From: Dubosiella newyorkensis
GTDB lineage: Bacteria; Bacillota_I; Bacilli_A; Erysipelotrichales; Erysipelotrichaceae
Length of the DNA stretch: 6,599 nucleotides
Assembly (NCBI RefSeq): GCF_001945605.1
Contig: NZ_MPKA01000040.1
Location: forward strand, 1-6,599
Reading direction: 5' to 3'
Notes under the pieces: generated by a model
Told to the model about the DNA's origin: nothing
The model's database searches: none
Seen by the model: the letters and a program-made list of their open reading frames with translations, nothing else
Shown: positions 1 through 6,599 of the stretch, in pieces
Layout: each line of letters opens with the position of its first letter
How positions within the stretch are numbered: the stretch's first letter is position 1
Made by a program: the position numbers and the translations under genes

Positions 1-1
1 G

Positions 2-70
2 AACAAAATCGTCAAAAATGCCAACGGGAAAAATGTGGCGAAATTCATAAAAGAAAGAAAAGGCGTCTAA
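2..70 (+). CDS. Possible 3' end of a convergent gene entering from the left edge (partial; ...NKIVKNANGKNVAKFIKERKGV*)
   Basis: Plus frame 2 is open from the window edge to TAA at 68-70. That stop lies inside the 59-100 hairpin, the usual geometry for a gene ending at a shared terminator. Only 22 codons are visible. The other two plus frames are also open for 16-36 codons, so neither frame nor product can be established. Confidence 0.3.
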   Translation, partial: NKIVKNANGKNVAKFIKERKGV

Positions 71-100
71 ACCCTTTAAATAAAGGAGATAGGCGCCTTT
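46..100 (-). terminator. Rho-independent terminator closing the minus-strand two-gene operon (probably bidirectional)
   Basis: The minus strand reads AAAGGCGCCTA-tct-CCTTT-attt-AAAGG-gtt-TAGACGCCTTT, followed by TCTTTCTTTTAT. The outer stem pairs 59-69 with 90-100 and has one C.A mismatch on the minus strand (G.U on the plus strand). The inner stem is 5 bp (73-77 with 82-86). The T-rich tail on the minus strand is at 46-58. On the plus strand the hairpin follows an A-tract and is trailed by only TTT, so it is stronger for minus-strand transcripts. Confidence 0.7.
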
Positions 101-297
101 CGCACTGTTAAAACTGTAAAAGATGGGATAATAACACAGTTTATGGAATTTCAAGCATAAAATTCTAATATTATAGGAAGAATCATTCACTTTTCAGTCA
201 AATCGCTTTAAAAAGTTATAGAAAACTGATATGAATTCTGATCTTTCCTAGTCAAGTAACTATGATACCATAATTTCCCATAAATCGTTTCTTTTTT

Positions 298-3200
298 TTA
301 ATGTTTGAGTTTGAACTTCTTTAAAGAATCTGTATTGATCTTGTTTTTTATAAGAGAAATTTTCATCTGAAAAATTGGAAAAGCATTTCTTTGATCCTCT
401 GTGATCATCTTTGCCGTTTGGTTCAACATCAATCCGTCTCCATCTAAATCGGTAGGAAGAATGATCAACTCTTTTTCCTTTACTTCTTGGATCGTAAAGC
501 AAATCTTGTTTTTGAATTCTTCATTGATCAATAAATTCGCTTGATACATTTCTTCCTTTTGTTTTTTGACCTCTAATAAAGTGTTTTGGATATCGTAATT
601 CTTGATTTTCCATCCATTTCTTCGAAAATATTCCACCTGAACGGAATCGACATTGAATTGTTTTCGCTTCAAATTATCTTTTCCATACAACATTGGAATA
701 TCTCTTAGAAACAAAAAGGTTTCTTCCTGTTTTGAAAACAAGCTCTTTGTCTGAATAGATCCTCTCACTCGATAAGGTCTAAAAGATTCTAAGTGTTCAA
801 ATCTACAGATTAGGGTTTTTGCGTTCGCTTCAATAGTCTTTGTACTTAACGTATTGTTGCCTGGATCTAAAAGCTGAACAACGATCACTTCATTGTTTTT
901 TATATCCTTCAACAACTCGAACTGAATGAAAACGTCCCTTTTTTCATGGTTCGTTTGAATTTGGATCGATCTTTGGTCGACTTCCGGACGATATTGAATG
1001 CGAATCATATTTTCCTTGTTCTGTTCTTTATAAAAAAATAAATTTAGATGTGAATACTCTTTATTGTTTTTTAAAGCTGCCGTTTCGATATACATATGCT
1101 TCTTCGTCCGCTGGATCTTTGGAACCATTCGAAATTGACCATCATCGCTCATCAAAACGACCCGATCAAAACCAATTCCATCAAAATACAATTTTGAAAA
1201 AGACTTGAATTCATCCGAATCGATCGAATGTTCGAATCCTCTCCATGCAAGATCATCAATCCGATAGATCGCTTCAGGTGGGGTCAAAACAAGCCAAAAC
1301 GTTTGTTTTGAATTCGGATAATACCATTCGATTTCGTACACATTCTTTTTCGAAACATCTTTATGAATGATCTTTCCATCGATCACATACGAATCCTCGA
1401 ACAAAGAAATCGAAAGTCTAGGCTCATAAAATACTTTTCTATGCGCTACTTTCCTTTTATCTTGAAAAAATTCTAAAACATTTAATCCTTCTTCAAACGA
1501 ATCAAGCAGCTCTTGAATGTTTTCATAACAATGCCCATTTCGCAAATAGAAACCATCTTCTTCAGGCTCGATCCGATAAATTGAACGATAAATCGGATAC
1601 GATGTTAGATAATCCTTGATATGAACATTCGAAAACTGATTTCCATACAGTTGAATAACGACCTTTTTTCTTTTCTCTAAACAAATCGTTCCTAGATCAT
1701 ACATTTCAAACTCTTGATCGACTTGGACACTCTCATCCTCTTGCAGATCAACACCAGCCACAATAAATTGACCTTCTAAAGAATCAGTGTTAGAGACATT
1801 CTTTCCAAACTCGTCAAAATACAAACGAGAATGGTAAAGACTCTCCCCACTACTAAAAAGAAGATGCTCATCCGTTTTGATTTGAAGTTTTAATCTTCCA
1901 AAAGGATCTTCCAATTCAATTTCGAAAGCTCGGATTCGATAGTTGTTGTCATGTCGAACGACCTTTAATCGATCTACCGTTTGAATCATTTCGTTATTTT
2001 GGAAGAATTCGATTCTTAACGACTTTGAATATCGTTCTGGATCAAAATCAAAATCCGGAATCCGCAAACAAATTTGATTACCATCCAATATAAAGTCAAA
2101 ATCAATGCTCTTCTCTTTACTATCATTTCGATCTTTAGTTTCTGTTTTCTCTCTATGATTTACTTTCTTTCCTCCAAGAATGCTTTGGATCTTTTCTTGG
2201 ATCTTATGATTCGATCCTTTGCCTGTCTTTACACTATGGATCCACTTAAAAAGTTCATAAACATAAAGAACAAGCTCATCCAGTTTGCTTTCATCTTCAA
2301 AATAACTCTTGAACGCGATATTCAAATGCGCTTCTGGCCCTCTTCTAAGCAAAGCCTGTTTTAGTTTTGGCTTTGAAACTTTCGCGAGATCATAATTAAA
2401 CTCATATTTAAAGATCGAATCCAAATACGGAATGAAAAGATCCCAATATGGAAACGGAACAAACGCTTGCCTTAAAACATTGTCGATCTTTCGCCACGAC
2501 TTTTTCTCTACAAAAGCATCGATGATCTTTCTTAAGCGGGTTTCTACATTGATCACATCATAAGTGGACTGTTCAAAAATAAGTGTCTGCTCTACCTTAT
2601 CCCAAAATGAACTGTCATAACATTCCATTCCGATCAAGCACAGAGCTAAAAATACCCAGTCTTGATGAATGATCTTAGAAGACTTATTCTTTAAAGCGTT
2701 TTGAGCTACAGAATAAATTTCTTTCACATAAGAATCGTTATCGATCAAATATGTAAGAGCGATCCCGATTGGAATATTTTTACGCACTTCTTGAATCAAG
2801 ATTTGAACGATCTTGTCAAGATCGTATTCTAAAATCGTCGATTGATCAAAACGACGGATTTGGTTCATAAAAAGGATCGGATCGATCGGTATTACATTCC
2901 TATAAATTTGCGGAACTCTTTTCTCGTGCGTTCCAAGTCGGCCTGCGATTACAATACCTTCGATAATTTCCTCTTTTTCTTGAATCGGATCAATTTTATA
3001 GAATTGGATTTGTTGTTGAAACAAAGAAATTCTGATCATCGGAAAGGATTGTTCATGGACTCCCAAATAACCCCTTAAAATTGTTCCGTCAACACTCTCT
3101 TCCTCTTCTTCAGAAGTTGACTCATTCACGGTTAGAAAAACGATTTGAAAAGCTATAGAACTGCGCTTGATCGGAACACAAGGTTCATGTGTTTCTAAAT

Positions 3201-3567
3201 AACCATCGATCAAAACACCTTCTACAACGCTCTCTTCTTCTTTTTTGATTTTGTTTTGTAGAGTTGTGAATTGTGAAAATAAAACTGGTCGCCTTATCGT
3301 GAGATTGTTTGGAACGTGATAATCCAAATAGCCCGAAAGAACAGTTCCTTCTAGGATTTCTTCGTTTGACGTATTATGTACTTCGTTTTTTAATTCAACC
3401 CTTTGAATCGTTCGTTTAGGAAAAAAGATGATGAGTTGCCTTGGTTGCTCAATTTTTAGTTGTTCTTCTTTTGGTTGTTCTTCATTTAATTTTTCTCTTT
3501 TGAAAAATGAGAAAAATTTTAAGAAAAGTTCTTTCCACTTCATATTTCTAACAACTCTTCCAGCCAT
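298..3567 (-). CDS. Large (1089 aa) hypothetical protein: N-terminal tandem ~43-aa repeats, helical middle, beta-rich C-terminal region; no recognisable catalytic motif
   Basis: An uninterrupted 1089-codon ORF in stop-rich AT-rich DNA, on the same strand as and overlapping the upstream helicase-like gene, with TAA stop at 298-300. There are two candidate starts. ATG 3567 gives the longest ORF, a 28-nt overlap and no obvious SD. ATG 3543 (Met9) forms ATGA with the upstream TGA at 3540-3542 and has GGAAGAG 11 nt upstream. By eye there is no GxxxxGK[ST], DExx helicase motif, HxK(x)4D, HNH or Cys/His cluster. Layout: EEQPK-like mini-repeat (aa ~29-43), 4.5 repeats (aa 42-244), W/F/Y-rich helical-looking region (aa ~245-465), charged linker (aa ~466-487), then alternating hydrophobic/polar beta-like sequence to aa 1089. 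Confidence 0.9.
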   Translation of the reverse strand: MAGRVVRNMKWKELFLKFFSFFKREKLNEEQPKEEQLKIEQPRQLIIFFPKRTIQRVELKNEVHNTSNEEILEGTVLSGYLDYHVPNNLTIRRPVLFSQFTTLQNKIKKEEESVVEGVLIDGYLETHEPCVPIKRSSIAFQIVFLTVNESTSEEEEESVDGTILRGYLGVHEQSFPMIRISLFQQQIQFYKIDPIQEKEEIIEGIVIAGRLGTHEKRVPQIYRNVIPIDPILFMNQIRRFDQSTILEYDLDKIVQILIQEVRKNIPIGIALTYLIDNDSYVKEIYSVAQNALKNKSSKIIHQDWVFLALCLIGMECYDSSFWDKVEQTLIFEQSTYDVINVETRLRKIIDAFVEKKSWRKIDNVLRQAFVPFPYWDLFIPYLDSIFKYEFNYDLAKVSKPKLKQALLRRGPEAHLNIAFKSYFEDESKLDELVLYVYELFKWIHSVKTGKGSNHKIQEKIQSILGGKKVNHREKTETKDRNDSKEKSIDFDFILDGNQICLRIPDFDFDPERYSKSLRIEFFQNNEMIQTVDRLKVVRHDNNYRIRAFEIELEDPFGRLKLQIKTDEHLLFSSGESLYHSRLYFDEFGKNVSNTDSLEGQFIVAGVDLQEDESVQVDQEFEMYDLGTICLEKRKKVVIQLYGNQFSNVHIKDYLTSYPIYRSIYRIEPEEDGFYLRNGHCYENIQELLDSFEEGLNVLEFFQDKRKVAHRKVFYEPRLSISLFEDSYVIDGKIIHKDVSKKNVYEIEWYYPNSKQTFWLVLTPPEAIYRIDDLAWRGFEHSIDSDEFKSFSKLYFDGIGFDRVVLMSDDGQFRMVPKIQRTKKHMYIETAALKNNKEYSHLNLFFYKEQNKENMIRIQYRPEVDQRSIQIQTNHEKRDVFIQFELLKDIKNNEVIVVQLLDPGNNTLSTKTIEANAKTLICRFEHLESFRPYRVRGSIQTKSLFSKQEETFLFLRDIPMLYGKDNLKRKQFNVDSVQVEYFRRNGWKIKNYDIQNTLLEVKKQKEEMYQANLLINEEFKNKICFTIQEVKEKELIILPTDLDGDGLMLNQTAKMITEDQRNAFPIFQMKISLIKNKINTDSLKKFKLKH
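2836..3444 (-). repeat. Protein-level tandem repeat array (about 4.5 copies of a ~43-44 aa unit) in the N-terminal region of the 1089-aa protein
   Basis: Aligned units are EEILEGTVLSGYLDYHVPNNLTIRRPVLF..., ESVVEGVLIDGYLETHEPCVPIKRSSIAF..., ESVDGTILRGYLGVHEQSFPMIRISLF... and EEIIEGIVIAGRLGTHEKRVPQIYRNVIP.... The E/D-G anchors fall at aa 73, 116, 160 and 203, a spacing of 43, 44 and 43 aa. Acidic linkers (EEES, SEEEEES, EKEE) separate the units. A half unit at aa 42-67 (FPKRTIQRVELKNEVHNTSNEE) matches the second half of unit 2 (VPIKRSSIAFQIVFLTVNESTSEE). The units are diverged at the DNA level, so the duplication is old. Confidence 0.8.
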
Positions 3568-6419
3568 TGTTTGGCGTACTTTCTTTTTAAGTGCTGGTGT
3601 TCTCTGCGATTTCTATAAGTTCTCAAACACCTGTAGCAGCTGCTTTCTTCTTCACAACAATCTTGCGAAACAATATCAAGAGCACAATTTAAAACGAGAG
3701 AAAGTGTATTCTCATCCGCTAGTCTTTGCACATGACCCGCTCCTCCTGGAACTTGATCAAAAAGAATAAACTCAAATTCTTGAAACGAGTTTGTCACCAA
3801 AAGTCCATTGATATCGTTTCTTTCGATTTGTAGGCTTTGACTTAAAGCGTTCAAGAGTCCATAAAGCAAAGACAAACACCAATCTCTATTTTTAGCATGT
3901 TCGCTGTTGATCTTGAGACGTACGACATCGGTTTTGAATACGTAGCCTAACGCTGTATGCTGTAGCGTCGTGTTCTCGCATTCAAAACCTCGAGGATCTC
4001 GATGCTTTTTTCTTTCCTTGATCGTATTCGAGCGCATCGTCTGCATTCGTTTCGTATAGCCACAGCTTTTACAATAATAAAAATGTCCTTCATTGATCAT
4101 TGCAAGCCTGTCTTCTTGGATTGCGGTCAGGCGGATCTTGTTAGCCAACAATACTTTTTCTTTAAATGGGAGTCCTTTTCCTAAATAACGGATTTCTCCT
4201 GCGTACGACTTGATCGGTTTGATGTTTTTCGAACGTTTTTCATTGGAAGCCACAAAACCAAATCGAGGCTCCAAAAAGAATAGATCCGTCTTTTTGTACG
4301 GCTTGAAACATGTTGGACAGAGTGACCCTTCTTCAAAAGGTTCTAAGGATACTTGCGTATCATGGCATTCTTCACATGTGTAGTAATAAGTCTTTGTCAG
4401 CTCTTTGCCTGTCTTTTTTGGAAGCTCGATATAACGAGAAACAAACTTCTTTTCATCGGCGATTACTTCTGAATCCGGCGCGTATTCGCTTATACCAATC
4501 AAAAGGTCTCTTTGCAGATCCACACTATGATCTTGAGGCACTTCCATTCGAATGAGATCGACAGGAAATCCATATTTTGGAATAATGGCAAATTTAGATA
4601 AGTCTTCCAAAATATTTTTCTTATTCAAATTGTCGATTTGGTTTTTAAAATAATCAGCTTGCCTAAAATTCTCGGATTGGGAGGCTTTGTCTTTTGCCGC
4701 TTCCAATGTATTGACGAGTTCGCTTGTTTCTTGAATATATTTTGATAAAACACTTTCGTCTTTCTTTAAAGCGTCGATCCATTTGCTTTGTTTGAACGCT
4801 TCTAAATTCGTGTTTTTCAGCACCCATTGATCAATATATTCAACTAAATCTTTTGGATTGCTGTTTATATAGTCAATAAAAGGTTCAAGATGGTCATCAT
4901 AAACAAAAGAAATATTTCGAAAATGGTCTGGATGCTTTCTAAAGTAATGGGCAAATGCACTTGCCAATATATGGCGAAGAGCGATCTTTTCATTTTCGAC
5001 CTTGAATTGTGGTGGATCGATCTTTCCGGAAATCATATCTTTTGGTCTTTGATAATAGTAATAATCGTGCGATTCGTTTTGGCAATACGTCATGATCAAG
5101 GCGCTCGCGTCTTTGCTTCGGCCTGCGCGCCCTGCTCTTTGGATATAATTGGCAGGCGTAGGTGGGATATTTCGACAAAACACGTATTCAAGACTTCCTA
5201 GATCGACTCCCATTTCAAAGGTCGTCGAGCAGCTAAGTACATTGATCTTTTTATTTTTAAAATCGATTTGGTATTGTTTGGCTTTATCGTTTTTCAACTG
5301 CGCTGTATGCTCTTGCGCGATTACGTTTTCGATCTTTTTTGTTTTATAGTTATTTCGGTAATAATGGTTTGCGAACACGTGATCAACATCGCATCGATGA
5401 AGCGTTCCAGGACATTCATGTTCTGGACACATTCCATGAATGTTGTATAGAGTCACTCTTTTACATTTGTCACATTGATACCAAGTCAACTTGGTATAAG
5501 GAATCACTTTAAATTTTTCAACCGGAATATGGTAAGAAAACACTTGGCTCGCTTCTGTTTCTTTCAAGATGCCTAGATTGCACATGAGCGTAAACAGCTT
5601 TTCCATAATATCGATGATTTCTTCTCTTTTAGCGTTTGGATAGAGCTTTTGTAAATAGGCGCTCGTCTTATTCTCTCTTTGGGCTTGTACTGGCAAAAAG
5701 CTTTCTACATATCGGTATTCATCCTTGTGGTTGTTGTACTCTCGCTTTTCTATGATCGTCTGCTCACGATTTCGATAAGGAAAGGCGTTGATCTTTTCTT
5801 CATCGGATAATTCAGCCACTTGATAATCAATAATGCATTTATGGCGCATTTGATCGATTAAAATATTAAAAAGAGTGATCGTTTCTTCTACATTTAATTG
5901 AAACGCGGAATGAAGCTCGGCTTCATTTTCATAAAGGATTTGAGGATTCAACTCAAATTGGTAGCCATACAAACCAAGGCTTTGTGCTGAATAGCGTCCA
6001 CTGGTATACATAAGATCCTGCAAAACGCTGATCCAGGCTTCGCTTTGCTCATGCTTTTGGTTTTTTGAAAAAAGTCCTTCTCTACGGATTTGGTTTGTTA
6101 GCTGCATCGCTAACGAGCGAATGTTCACGCCTTGTGTTTCTTTGATCGCATCCCATACGAGTCGTTTTCGTAAAAAGAGTTCATGGTTGTTGTTGAACTG
6201 CATTGAAAAGAAGCTGGCTTGTTGTCTTGAGTCAGAGAAAGTCAAAAGCTGTTTTACATTCTTTTTTGGAGTTGTTTCTATTGAAGTTTTATCAAAAAGA
6301 CTCTTTTTTACAGGTCTTTGCGTTTTTACTTCTACTTGTTTTTCGTCGATCGATTCATAAAAGATTTCGGAAAGTACGGCTGTTCCTGTGTCTTTATTGA
6401 GATTGAACGATGAAATCAT
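3540..6419 (-). CDS. SF2 helicase C-terminal half (RecA2 lobe only) fused to a DUF1998/MrfA-type Zn-binding domain; lacks the RecA1 ATPase lobe
   Basis: A 959-codon ORF with ATG at 6417-6419 and TGA at 3540-3542. RecA2 motifs: LLTFSDSRQQA (aa 58-68), EHTAQL (aa 370-375), VLSCSTTFEMGVDLG (motif V, aa 394-408) and YIQRAGRAGR (motif VI, aa 425-434; 5118-5141 reads caa aga gca ggg cgc gca ggc cga on the minus strand). DUF1998-type C-terminus: IIPKYGFPVD (aa 612-621), CxxC pairs, and CCEEESSCYRCLRTYRNRREHQHL (aa 921-944). No Walker A (GxGK[ST]) or DExH/DEAD motif occurs anywhere, and only ~57 aa precede the first RecA2 strand. Confidence 0.9.
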   Translation of the reverse strand: MISSFNLNKDTGTAVLSEIFYESIDEKQVEVKTQRPVKKSLFDKTSIETTPKKNVKQLLTFSDSRQQASFFSMQFNNNHELFLRKRLVWDAIKETQGVNIRSLAMQLTNQIRREGLFSKNQKHEQSEAWISVLQDLMYTSGRYSAQSLGLYGYQFELNPQILYENEAELHSAFQLNVEETITLFNILIDQMRHKCIIDYQVAELSDEEKINAFPYRNREQTIIEKREYNNHKDEYRYVESFLPVQAQRENKTSAYLQKLYPNAKREEIIDIMEKLFTLMCNLGILKETEASQVFSYHIPVEKFKVIPYTKLTWYQCDKCKRVTLYNIHGMCPEHECPGTLHRCDVDHVFANHYYRNNYKTKKIENVIAQEHTAQLKNDKAKQYQIDFKNKKINVLSCSTTFEMGVDLGSLEYVFCRNIPPTPANYIQRAGRAGRSKDASALIMTYCQNESHDYYYYQRPKDMISGKIDPPQFKVENEKIALRHILASAFAHYFRKHPDHFRNISFVYDDHLEPFIDYINSNPKDLVEYIDQWVLKNTNLEAFKQSKWIDALKKDESVLSKYIQETSELVNTLEAAKDKASQSENFRQADYFKNQIDNLNKKNILEDLSKFAIIPKYGFPVDLIRMEVPQDHSVDLQRDLLIGISEYAPDSEVIADEKKFVSRYIELPKKTGKELTKTYYYTCEECHDTQVSLEPFEEGSLCPTCFKPYKKTDLFFLEPRFGFVASNEKRSKNIKPIKSYAGEIRYLGKGLPFKEKVLLANKIRLTAIQEDRLAMINEGHFYYCKSCGYTKRMQTMRSNTIKERKKHRDPRGFECENTTLQHTALGYVFKTDVVRLKINSEHAKNRDWCLSLLYGLLNALSQSLQIERNDINGLLVTNSFQEFEFILFDQVPGGAGHVQRLADENTLSLVLNCALDIVSQDCCEEESSCYRCLRTYRNRREHQHLKRKYAKQWLEELLEI
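3585..4592 (-). other. DUF1998 / MrfA-type Zn-binding C-terminal region
   Basis: The region begins near IIPKYGFPVDLIRMEV (aa 612-627). It contains CEEC...CPTC (aa 682-704, 4308-4376) and CKSC...H...C (aa 783-814, 3978-4073). The family-typical tail follows: FDQVPGGAGH (aa 887-896) and CCEEESSCYRCL-x-x-Y-x-N (aa 921-937; the Cys cluster aa 921-931 is at 3627-3659). Confidence 0.75.
5010..6251 (-). other. RecA2 (helicase C-terminal) lobe with a ~290-aa insertion between the FSDSRQ strand and motifs IV-VI
   Basis: FSDSRQ is at 6222-6239, motif V at 5196-5240 and motif VI at 5118-5141. The stretch between aa ~75 and ~365 is a helical-looking insertion that ends in a Cys-rich knuckle. Confidence 0.75.
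5412..5474 (-). other. Cys4-type zinc-ribbon-like knuckle inserted in the RecA2 lobe
   Basis: WYQCDKCKRVTLYNIHGMCPEHECPGTLHRC (aa 313-343) has a CxxC, 12 intervening residues, then CxxxxC. A further His and Cys follow (H341, C343). Confidence 0.6.
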
Positions 6420-6479
6420 GCCATTGTCGCTATGCTGTTGACAATATGGACAATCATTTAAATTATTCTTTCTATATAG

Positions 6480-6508
6480 ATTATCCTAAATAATCCGCCT
6501 TTGCTCAA
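6480..6508 (-). promoter_or_regulatory. Sigma-A-like promoter for the two-gene operon
   Basis: The minus strand reads TTGAGC (6508-6503), a 17-nt spacer, then GATAAT (6485-6480). That is 4/6 and 5/6 matches to TTGACA/TATAAT at optimal spacing. The predicted 5' UTR to ATG 6419 is ~50 nt. This is prediction from sequence only. Confidence 0.5.
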
Positions 6509-6526
6509 ATGACTTGTTCAAATCAT
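6501..6526. repeat. Tandem imperfect 13-bp direct repeat overlapping the -35 element (possible operator)
   Basis: On the plus strand TTGCTCAAATGAC (6501-6513) is immediately followed by TTGTTCAAATCAT (6514-6526), with 10/13 identical. On the minus strand this reads ATGATTTGAACAA GTCATTTGAGCAA, and the proximal copy contains the -35 TTGAGC. Confidence 0.35.
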
Positions 6527-6599
6527 TTAACACTTAAACAATAAAGCGTTTCAATAATAAAGATAGATAGAAAGAAGTGTATCTCTATGAATCCAGCTT

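Follow-up and report, generated by a model that had tools for sequence, protein, structure and literature searches.

We analysed a 6,599-nucleotide (nt) stretch of DNA from Dubosiella newyorkensis, a gut commensal bacterium of the mouse (RefSeq assembly GCF_001945605.1, contig NZ_MPKA01000040.1, positions 1 to 6,599; hereafter the window), which carries on its minus strand an open reading frame (ORF) of 959 amino acids (aa) with helicase features (3540..6419). This ORF is very probably the back part of a DruE-like helicase gene that was split by an IS630-family insertion sequence (IS), the RecA1 half of the motor lying beyond the IS. According to this reading, an element of 1176 bp would have inserted at a TA on the boundary of codons 555 and 556 in a helicase gene that encodes 1532 aa, duplicating the TA and leaving the RecA1 half intact on its far side, and the 959-aa 'gene' would be the longest ATG-initiated frame left downstream of the junction, beginning at the internal codon Met574. 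A start at this position would account for the lack of both a ribosome-binding site and a RecA1 lobe, and interruption by the IS would account for the 18 helicase codons and four IS-derived in-frame codons, without any start, that precede the ATG. As short-read assemblers would break at a copy of the IS, the halves came to lie on separate small contigs and the window ends 125 nt into the element. The gene is an ordinary case of disruption by an IS, and the kind of event is already known.

The 959-aa ORF corresponds to codons 574-1532 of the disrupted DruE/YprA-family gene, as judged from Pfam, PADLOC and alignment to a longer homologue from the species (P0001). Only two Pfam domains were matched, Helicase_C at residues 362-435 (46 bits, cut-off 23.5) and the MrfA zinc-binding domain (MZB/DUF1998) at 853-932 (43.5 bits, cut-off 24.2); the ORF carries the RecA2 lobe with its insertions and the C-terminal MZB zinc domain. 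A motif scan located helicase motif VI (QRAGRAGR) at residue 427 and found none of GxxxxGK[ST], GK[ST], DExx or SAT in the 959-aa product. The first-pass annotation, made from the letters of the window alone, had reported the lack of Walker A and DExH/DEAD motifs and the position of LLTFSDSRQ near the start of the ORF, and both statements were borne out, the latter sequence starting at residue 59. The match to the PADLOC DruE1 profile was strong (E = 2.7e-102) and limited to positions 718-1674 of 1776, and since it covers only these positions, the ORF appears to be the C-terminal ~60% of a DruE-type helicase. The RecA1 motifs I, II and III, which mark members of the family, are absent from the window ORF and present in the undisrupted gene, and the window product is a gene fragment, not a DruE/YprA-family member in its own right. 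It is recorded as WP_076340488.1 in a cluster built at 90% identity, which also holds the records OLU47797.1 and MFA1015977.1 (D. newyorkensis, Erysipelotrichaceae).

When the upstream codons of the window were included, the closest match was P0001, with 98% identity to its residues 556-1340; P0001 extends 555 residues further towards the N-terminus and has GSGKT, DEAH and SAT in that part. Residues 1-58 of the 959-aa ORF align to residues 574-631 of the intact protein, and a cryptic RecA1 lobe within these residues was ruled out both by their length and by this alignment. The ATG at 6419 is the internal codon M574, in a column that is mostly Ile in the consensus of the homologue alignment. 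Inspection of the sequence upstream of this ATG revealed no Shine-Dalgarno, in agreement with the first-pass annotation; the ATG is an internal Met codon and not a real start.

The in-frame extension upstream of ATG 6419 reads DNLYRKNNLNDCPYCQQHSDNG, following a TAG at 6486-6488, and further in-frame stops are present at 6534-6536 and 6585-6587. The 22 codons of this extension, their lack of a start and the next stop at 6534-6536 had all been described correctly from the letters. In contrast, the conclusion that the upstream DNA was 'genuinely non-coding' did not hold: positions 6420..6472 (minus strand) are the in-frame helicase codons 556-573 (RKNNLNDCPYCQQHSDNG), identified by alignment to intact alleles and enclosed by the IS junction on one side and the first Met codon on the other, and positions 6475..6599 (plus strand) are one end of the IS. 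Codons 556-573 are collinear with two intact alleles (L021 and L022) and match the intact relatives at the protein level, except for R/K at codon 556 in one group of alleles. They include the conserved CxxC formed by C563 and C566, and N558, N559, C563 and C566 are invariant in 13 homologues. In the DNA alignment, the homology of the window to longer or intact alleles ends at the TA at 6473..6474, which is the right-hand copy of the target-site duplication, as identified from the junctions and the empty site in L021 and L022; the target TA straddles the boundary of codons 555 and 556. Alignment to full-length helicases, one of the checks that had been proposed, thus placed the truncation point at this TA.

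The part of the IS inside the window (6475..6599) is the terminal 125 nt of the 1176-bp element, the rest of which lies beyond the window edge, and it comprises the 5' untranslated region of the transposase gene together with an imperfect terminal inverted repeat. The first 13 nt of the transposase gene orfA (ATGAATCCAGCTT; 6587..6599, plus strand) start with an ATG at 6587-6589 and run off the window. The 'stop' at 6585-6587 had been considered a possible end of a RecA1 gene; it arises from reading the surroundings of the transposase start codon on the antisense strand, and the four codons visible beyond it are the antisense of the transposase start. A sigma-70-like hexamer pair, TTGAGC-17-GATAAT (6480..6508, minus strand), is also located inside the IS end and is directed outward, toward the truncated gene. 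It had been described as a good promoter sitting in front of the ORF: the hexamers are present there, but they match weakly (9/12) and belong to the IS end, and promoter-like hexamer sites numbered 3 as against 1.2 expected in shuffles. A sequencing frameshift was ruled out, as the upstream frame is closed by IS sequence and not by a shifted helicase frame. The first-pass annotation was right to exclude a single nonsense or frameshift mutation as the reason for the loss, the cause being the IS insertion.

Exact-sequence look-up placed the 959-aa protein on four short contigs, of which the three displayed end soon upstream of the ATG. Nine contigs with this ORF were recovered from independent assemblies of isolates and metagenomes, and each of them ends 79-433 nt upstream of the ATG, eight within 79-107 nt. 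The longest upstream stretch was found in L002 (contig JBGNFS010000020.1 of GCA_041448535.1), which is 100% identical to the window and runs into a divergent ORF whose 88 visible residues match the N-terminus of the IS630 transposase model. Inspection of the DNA beyond position 6599 for an IS junction, also proposed on first pass, thereby led to an IS630-type transposase. The RecA1 half was found in the same assembly, on L010 (JBGNFS010000024.1, 2069 nt), which carries codons 83-555 with DEAD and ResIII domains, continues through the left junction as CAGGAGATAC-TA-TATATATTGCC and ends after 649 nt of IS. This piece of IS encodes, antisense, the C-terminal DDE part of the transposase, and the RecA1 half ends 13 IS-encoded codons past the junction. 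The motifs missing from the window, GSGKT (I), DEAH (II) and SAT (III), lie in this half, beyond the IS. N-terminal fragments of 441-486 aa are present in the same 90% cluster and the same assemblies, namely MFA1015989.1 and OLU47885.1, the latter re-annotated as WP_269843888.1. When residues 1-555 of P0001 were used for a homology search, no fragment of near-identical sequence was listed, such fragments being folded into the cluster of a longer representative.

Comparison of related strains, as had also been suggested, revealed intact 1532-aa alleles with an empty TA site within D. newyorkensis. Three intact alleles of this length are present in the 90% cluster, including WP_304750049.1 and WP_304805497.1. 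In the intact alleles of the nearest lineage (L021 and L022) the empty site reads GATAC-TA-GAAAG, an exact match to the TA-GAAAG of the window; the left junction reads GATAC-TA-IS and the right junction IS-TA-GAAAG. When L010 and the window were joined, with the IS and one TA removed, they gave a single collinear blastn match to L021 over 7743 nt with 98.2% identity. The two pieces join without loss of a base, and no stop interrupts the resulting frame between codon 83 and its normal end at codon 1532; GSGKT, DEAH240, SAT274 and QRAGRAGR1000 all occur in it. The right junction is identical in all nine contigs with the 959-aa ORF, and the left junction is identical in six contigs from isolates and metagenomes and from different assemblers. 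The IS entered the zinc-binding insertion located between RecA1 and RecA2, at a point flanked by invariant cysteines, with C519, C522, C536 and C538 on one side and C563 and C566 on the other in the 13 homologues. Among 120 homologues listed, about 100 are single polypeptides of ~1530-1590 aa with DEAD/ResIII, Helicase_C and MZB domains, the shorter entries among the 120 having been left out of this check.

The complete element was rebuilt from metagenome contigs. L028, a contig from sequencing run SRR14862903, passes the left junction, covers the whole IS (1068-2243) and stops 3 nt into the right-hand flank (TAG), where it overlaps L015, the contig of the C-terminal half from the same sample, by exactly 30 nt. 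The full IS obtained from these two contigs is 1176 bp with TA on both flanks, and it is matched with 100% identity by the 125 nt of IS in the window, the 378 nt in L002 and the 649 nt in L010. The imperfect terminal inverted repeats, TATATATTGCC.../TATAGATTATCC..., extend as far as a AATGACTTG block that they have in common ~45 nt in. The element is antisense to the helicase gene and encodes orfA (173 aa, with helix-turn-helix domains) and orfB (DDE_3), the called ORFs matching Pfam DDE_3 and HTH_23/28/29. Joined by a -1 shift at an A9 run (IS position 622-630 on the transposase strand), orfA and orfB give a 350-aa transposase that matches the IS630 model NF033545 with 263.7 bits (cut-off 100) over profile positions 4-298 of 299. 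The split of the frame at the A9 run could be due to programmed frameshifting or to a homopolymer-length state. Thus, the features by which IS630 elements are recognised were all found, namely the transposase model, the TA duplication, the inverted repeats and a length of ~1.1-1.2 kb, and the site is polymorphic for presence and absence, with empty-site alleles in the same species. SPAdes contigs stop ~55 nt into each IS end and Logan contigs ~30 nt, about one k-mer length, which is how a repeat behaves in a de Bruijn graph. An exact-pattern scan for the IS end TTTGAGCAAAGGCGGATTATTTAGG in GTDB species-representative genomes gave 0 matches, and no PLSDB plasmid was matched by the IS in megablast.

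The identity of the gene was assessed with the intact allele P0242, which has GSGKT, DEAH240 and SAT274 and matched PADLOC DruE1 with E = 7.6e-159 (best stretch residues 168-1527) and DruE3 with E = 9.4e-156. In a sequence search of solved structures, the best match of the intact protein was 9tu7, a 2108-aa 'DEAD/DEAH box helicase' (2.3e-73), followed by 9wae and by MrfA/YprA, 6znp (E = 1.4e-18). The intact gene is therefore best assigned, from its sequence, to the DruE/YprA(MrfA) family of SF2 helicases with a C-terminal MZB zinc domain. PLD nuclease domains are present in DruE of type III-A Druantia and absent in III-B (PMC12458937; bioRxiv 10.64898/2026.05.13.724758). Domain search of the intact 1532-aa protein gave no PLD match, as in subtype III-B, and the protein ends 27 residues after its MZB match (1426-1505 of 1532).

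The gene downstream of the helicase, on the same strand, is intact and encodes a partner of 1081 aa (298..3543, minus strand) that overlaps the helicase stop by 4 nt. Its ORF spans 298-3567 and counts 1089 aa from the first start codon; the ATG at 3543, which gene callers choose, gives 1081 aa. Searches of the partner against Pfam, NCBIfam, PADLOC and PDB sequences returned nothing significant, in PADLOC even at E <= 10 and with the DruH models included. Near its N-terminus it has four tandem repeats of ~43 aa (residues ~64-236; window ~2840-3355, minus strand) with a consensus of roughly EG.V/IL.GYL..HE...P..R...F. It is homologous to the large gene downstream of the helicase in L025, a relative with 50% identity (27% identity, E = 2e-66), and to the large gene upstream of the helicase in the more distant relative L027 (E = 1e-32); the repeat region is not aligned to these homologues, in which similarity starts at about residue 231-241. 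A Hachiman pair (HamA and helicase) is located beside the relative of the module in L025 (4802-8055), and a PLD-helicase and GmrSD beside that in L027 (679-5551).

With an iterated profile, the partner family was found adjoining the helicase in ~28 of 80 reference-genome loci; such a profile could drift, although the strict adjacency and co-orientation of the matches argue against drift, and it did not reach the partners in actinobacterial loci. In ~27 of the 28 related loci the partner lies immediately upstream of the helicase, which is the canonical druH-druE order, whereas in the window and in L025 the helicase comes before the partner (as against L033-L068). By its position, the partner is provisionally regarded as the DruH-like second component of a two-gene module. 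The layout would be that of type III Druantia (DruH and DruE), the membership of the pair being provisional, as the partner matched none of the PADLOC DruH models.

In E. coli Druantia III-A, mutations in DruE motif I, II or VI or in the MZB cysteines each abolish defence (bioRxiv 10.64898/2026.05.13.724758, in which the motif VI RAGR box is labelled motif IV). Since mutation of motifs I and II abolishes DruE-dependent defence in E. coli, we infer that the helicase would be inactive in the lineage carrying the IS, as would the Druantia type III-like defence module of two genes to which it belongs. The 4-nt overlap of the partner with the helicase stop suggests translational coupling, and expression of the partner is for that reason probably also reduced in this lineage.

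Several points weigh against disruption by the IS as the full account. The fragment and the partner gene are free of secondary lesions, and residual expression of the fragment from the promoter-like site in the IS end could still occur. No single contig of the window's own assembly spans both junctions; the link between the halves rests on the IS ends, the TA duplication, collinearity and one metagenome sample with overlapping contigs. Further, L010 covers the IS-bearing allele only from codon 83 onward, and another lesion or rearrangement may be present upstream, in codons 1-82 or the promoter. The start of L010 at this codon could reflect another assembly-breaking repeat or a deletion; the annotated N-terminal fragment of an earlier D. 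newyorkensis assembly starts at about codon 87.

The same halves could in principle be the two genes of a naturally split motor, RecA1 and RecA2/MZB having co-evolved as separate genes that form a working helicase, as in DISARM DrmA/DrmB. Both halves are present with no further stops over codons 83-1532, and split YprA-family helicases are known in other systems (PMC12458937). However, the gap consists of an IS630 element, which is mobile and flanked by a TA duplication, rather than of an intergenic spacer; alleles with an intact single ORF and 98% identity are found in the same species; and the break lies inside the conserved zinc-binding insertion, between invariant cysteines. No Shine-Dalgarno precedes the C-terminal half, most homologues have Ile where it has its Met, and the last 13 residues of the N-terminal half come from the IS. 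The split is not conserved either, as ~100 of the 120 listed homologues consist of one ORF of ~1530-1590 aa. We therefore regard a natural split as extremely unlikely. The first-pass annotation, which had listed it among three options, was right only to the letter: the RecA1 half is encoded elsewhere, nearby, but the intact single-ORF alleles of the species show the split not to be natural. Its proposal of a 5'-truncated remnant with a breakpoint at ~6420-6490 came closest, as the breakpoint is at 6472/6475, but the event was an insertion without deletion and the parent, which had been put at ~1700 aa or larger, has 1532 aa. Deletion of the 5' half, leaving only the RecA2/MZB part in the genome, would agree with the fact that nothing upstream within the window encodes RecA1 and that the frame is closed by stops; it has scarcely any likelihood, since the RecA1 half is on contig 24 (L010) of the same assembly, with a matching junction to the same IS, and the two pieces fit with no base lost, which refutes a deletion for codons 83-555. 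The probability that the IS junction is a chimera of assembly or sequencing and the real gene intact is practically nil: all the evidence does come from short-read draft assemblies that break at the IS, but the same right junction was obtained in nine contigs and the same left junction in six, by different assemblers, the TA duplication is present, and L028 crosses the left junction and the entire IS to reach 3 nt into the right flank.

It is also very unlikely that the RecA1-less fragment is expressed from a promoter in the IS end and acts alone, as a DNA-binding scaffold, as a partner of the 1081-aa protein or as a dominant-negative form. The TTGAGC-17-GATAAT pair in the IS end does point into the fragment, and the 959-aa frame and the partner gene have stayed open in both sub-lineages with the IS, between which 12 residues differ; open frames are, however, equally expected for a recent insertion. 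The fragment has no ribosome-binding site, the promoter match is weak (9/12), the helicase core of E. coli DruE is required for defence (bioRxiv 10.64898/2026.05.13.724758), and the species tolerates another null allele, Q1341*. The non-motor scaffold suggested on first pass found no support. A more specific form of this proposal, in which the IS-end promoter drives both the fragment and the intact DruH-like partner and the two are kept open for a retained helicase-independent activity, likewise has a slender chance of being right. If true, the retained activity might be DNA or partner binding, interference with incoming Druantia, or reassembly with the RecA1 half as a split helicase created by the IS.

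Disruption by the IS is one of several states of the helicase gene in D. newyorkensis. The intact 1532-aa protein is represented by P0242 (13 contigs), P0248 (14 contigs) and P0243 (at least 1 contig). P0001, on 24 contigs, has a CAA→TAA nonsense mutation at codon 1341 (Q1341*; L004 14021-14023 and L005 6402-6404), and in this lineage the MZB part is called as a separate ORF of 168-186 aa. The IS630 insertion is found in the two sub-lineages P0241 and P0251, which differ at 12 of 959 residues. Because Q1341* is independent of the IS insertion, the gene appears from these alleles to have been inactivated at least twice in the species. In the P0251 sub-lineage, the N-terminal fragment loses helicase homology ~10 nt upstream of codon 212, where unrelated sequence, TCGGATTTGTCAAAAACAGAAATTTAGATTGTCCTCAAACTTGACATAGTACCA, replaces helicase sequence (L028 1-25; L029 and L030 1-50); this break may represent a second insertion or rearrangement in the RecA1 part. 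Elements of the IS66 family are located just upstream of the helicase gene in L004 (7703-9286) and L005 (84-1667), and an IS256-type Transposase_mut in L021-L024 (L021 24-449; L022 1-376). A polysaccharide-biosynthesis cluster lies downstream, and the module is situated in an IS-rich variable region.

The Druantia III-like module exists in at least three states within one gut commensal species, intact, Q1341* and IS630-disrupted, with a further lesion in one sub-lineage, and this allele diversity fits the rapid gain and loss of defence systems. The three allele states provide natural, isogenic-like material for testing an uncharacterised Bacillota clade of DruE and its partner. For annotation, the records WP_076340488.1 ('helicase-related protein' / 'DUF1998 domain-containing protein') and WP_269843888.1 ('DEAD/DEAH box helicase') should be corrected as the two halves of one gene, and they are not to be read as a RecA1-less helicase or a split motor.

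Among known systems, the module most resembles type III-B Druantia, which it matches in the full-length PADLOC DruE hits, in the order of RecA1, helical and zinc-binding insertion, RecA2 and MZB with the end of the protein right after MZB, in the two-gene arrangement with a ~1100-aa partner without an annotated domain, and in the defence-island context of the relatives L025 and L027. It differs in that the window gene is broken by an IS, in its helicase-first order, which is reversed in ~27 of 28 related loci, and in that the D. newyorkensis partner matches no PADLOC DruH model. MrfA/YprA of Bacillus subtilis (PDB 6znp) shares the SF2 helicase core and the MZB/DUF1998 zinc domain, but it is a protein of 751 aa with a DNA repair role and has neither the large insertion between RecA1 and RecA2 nor a DruH-like partner. 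In DISARM, too, helicase and DUF1998 functions reside on separate polypeptides (DrmA and DrmB), and the RecA2 region of the D. newyorkensis protein gave weak PADLOC DrmA matches (E = 3.9e-13). However, DISARM is split, in a conserved manner, between the helicase core and DUF1998, whereas in D. newyorkensis the break separates RecA1 from RecA2, was brought about by an IS and affects only some strains. The event itself is of the kind known for gene inactivation by IS630 / Tc1-mariner-type elements, with a DDE transposase in two frames at an A9 run, a duplicated TA, imperfect inverted repeats, a length of 1176 bp and breakage of short-read assemblies at the element, and nothing in the D. newyorkensis copy was found to be unusual.

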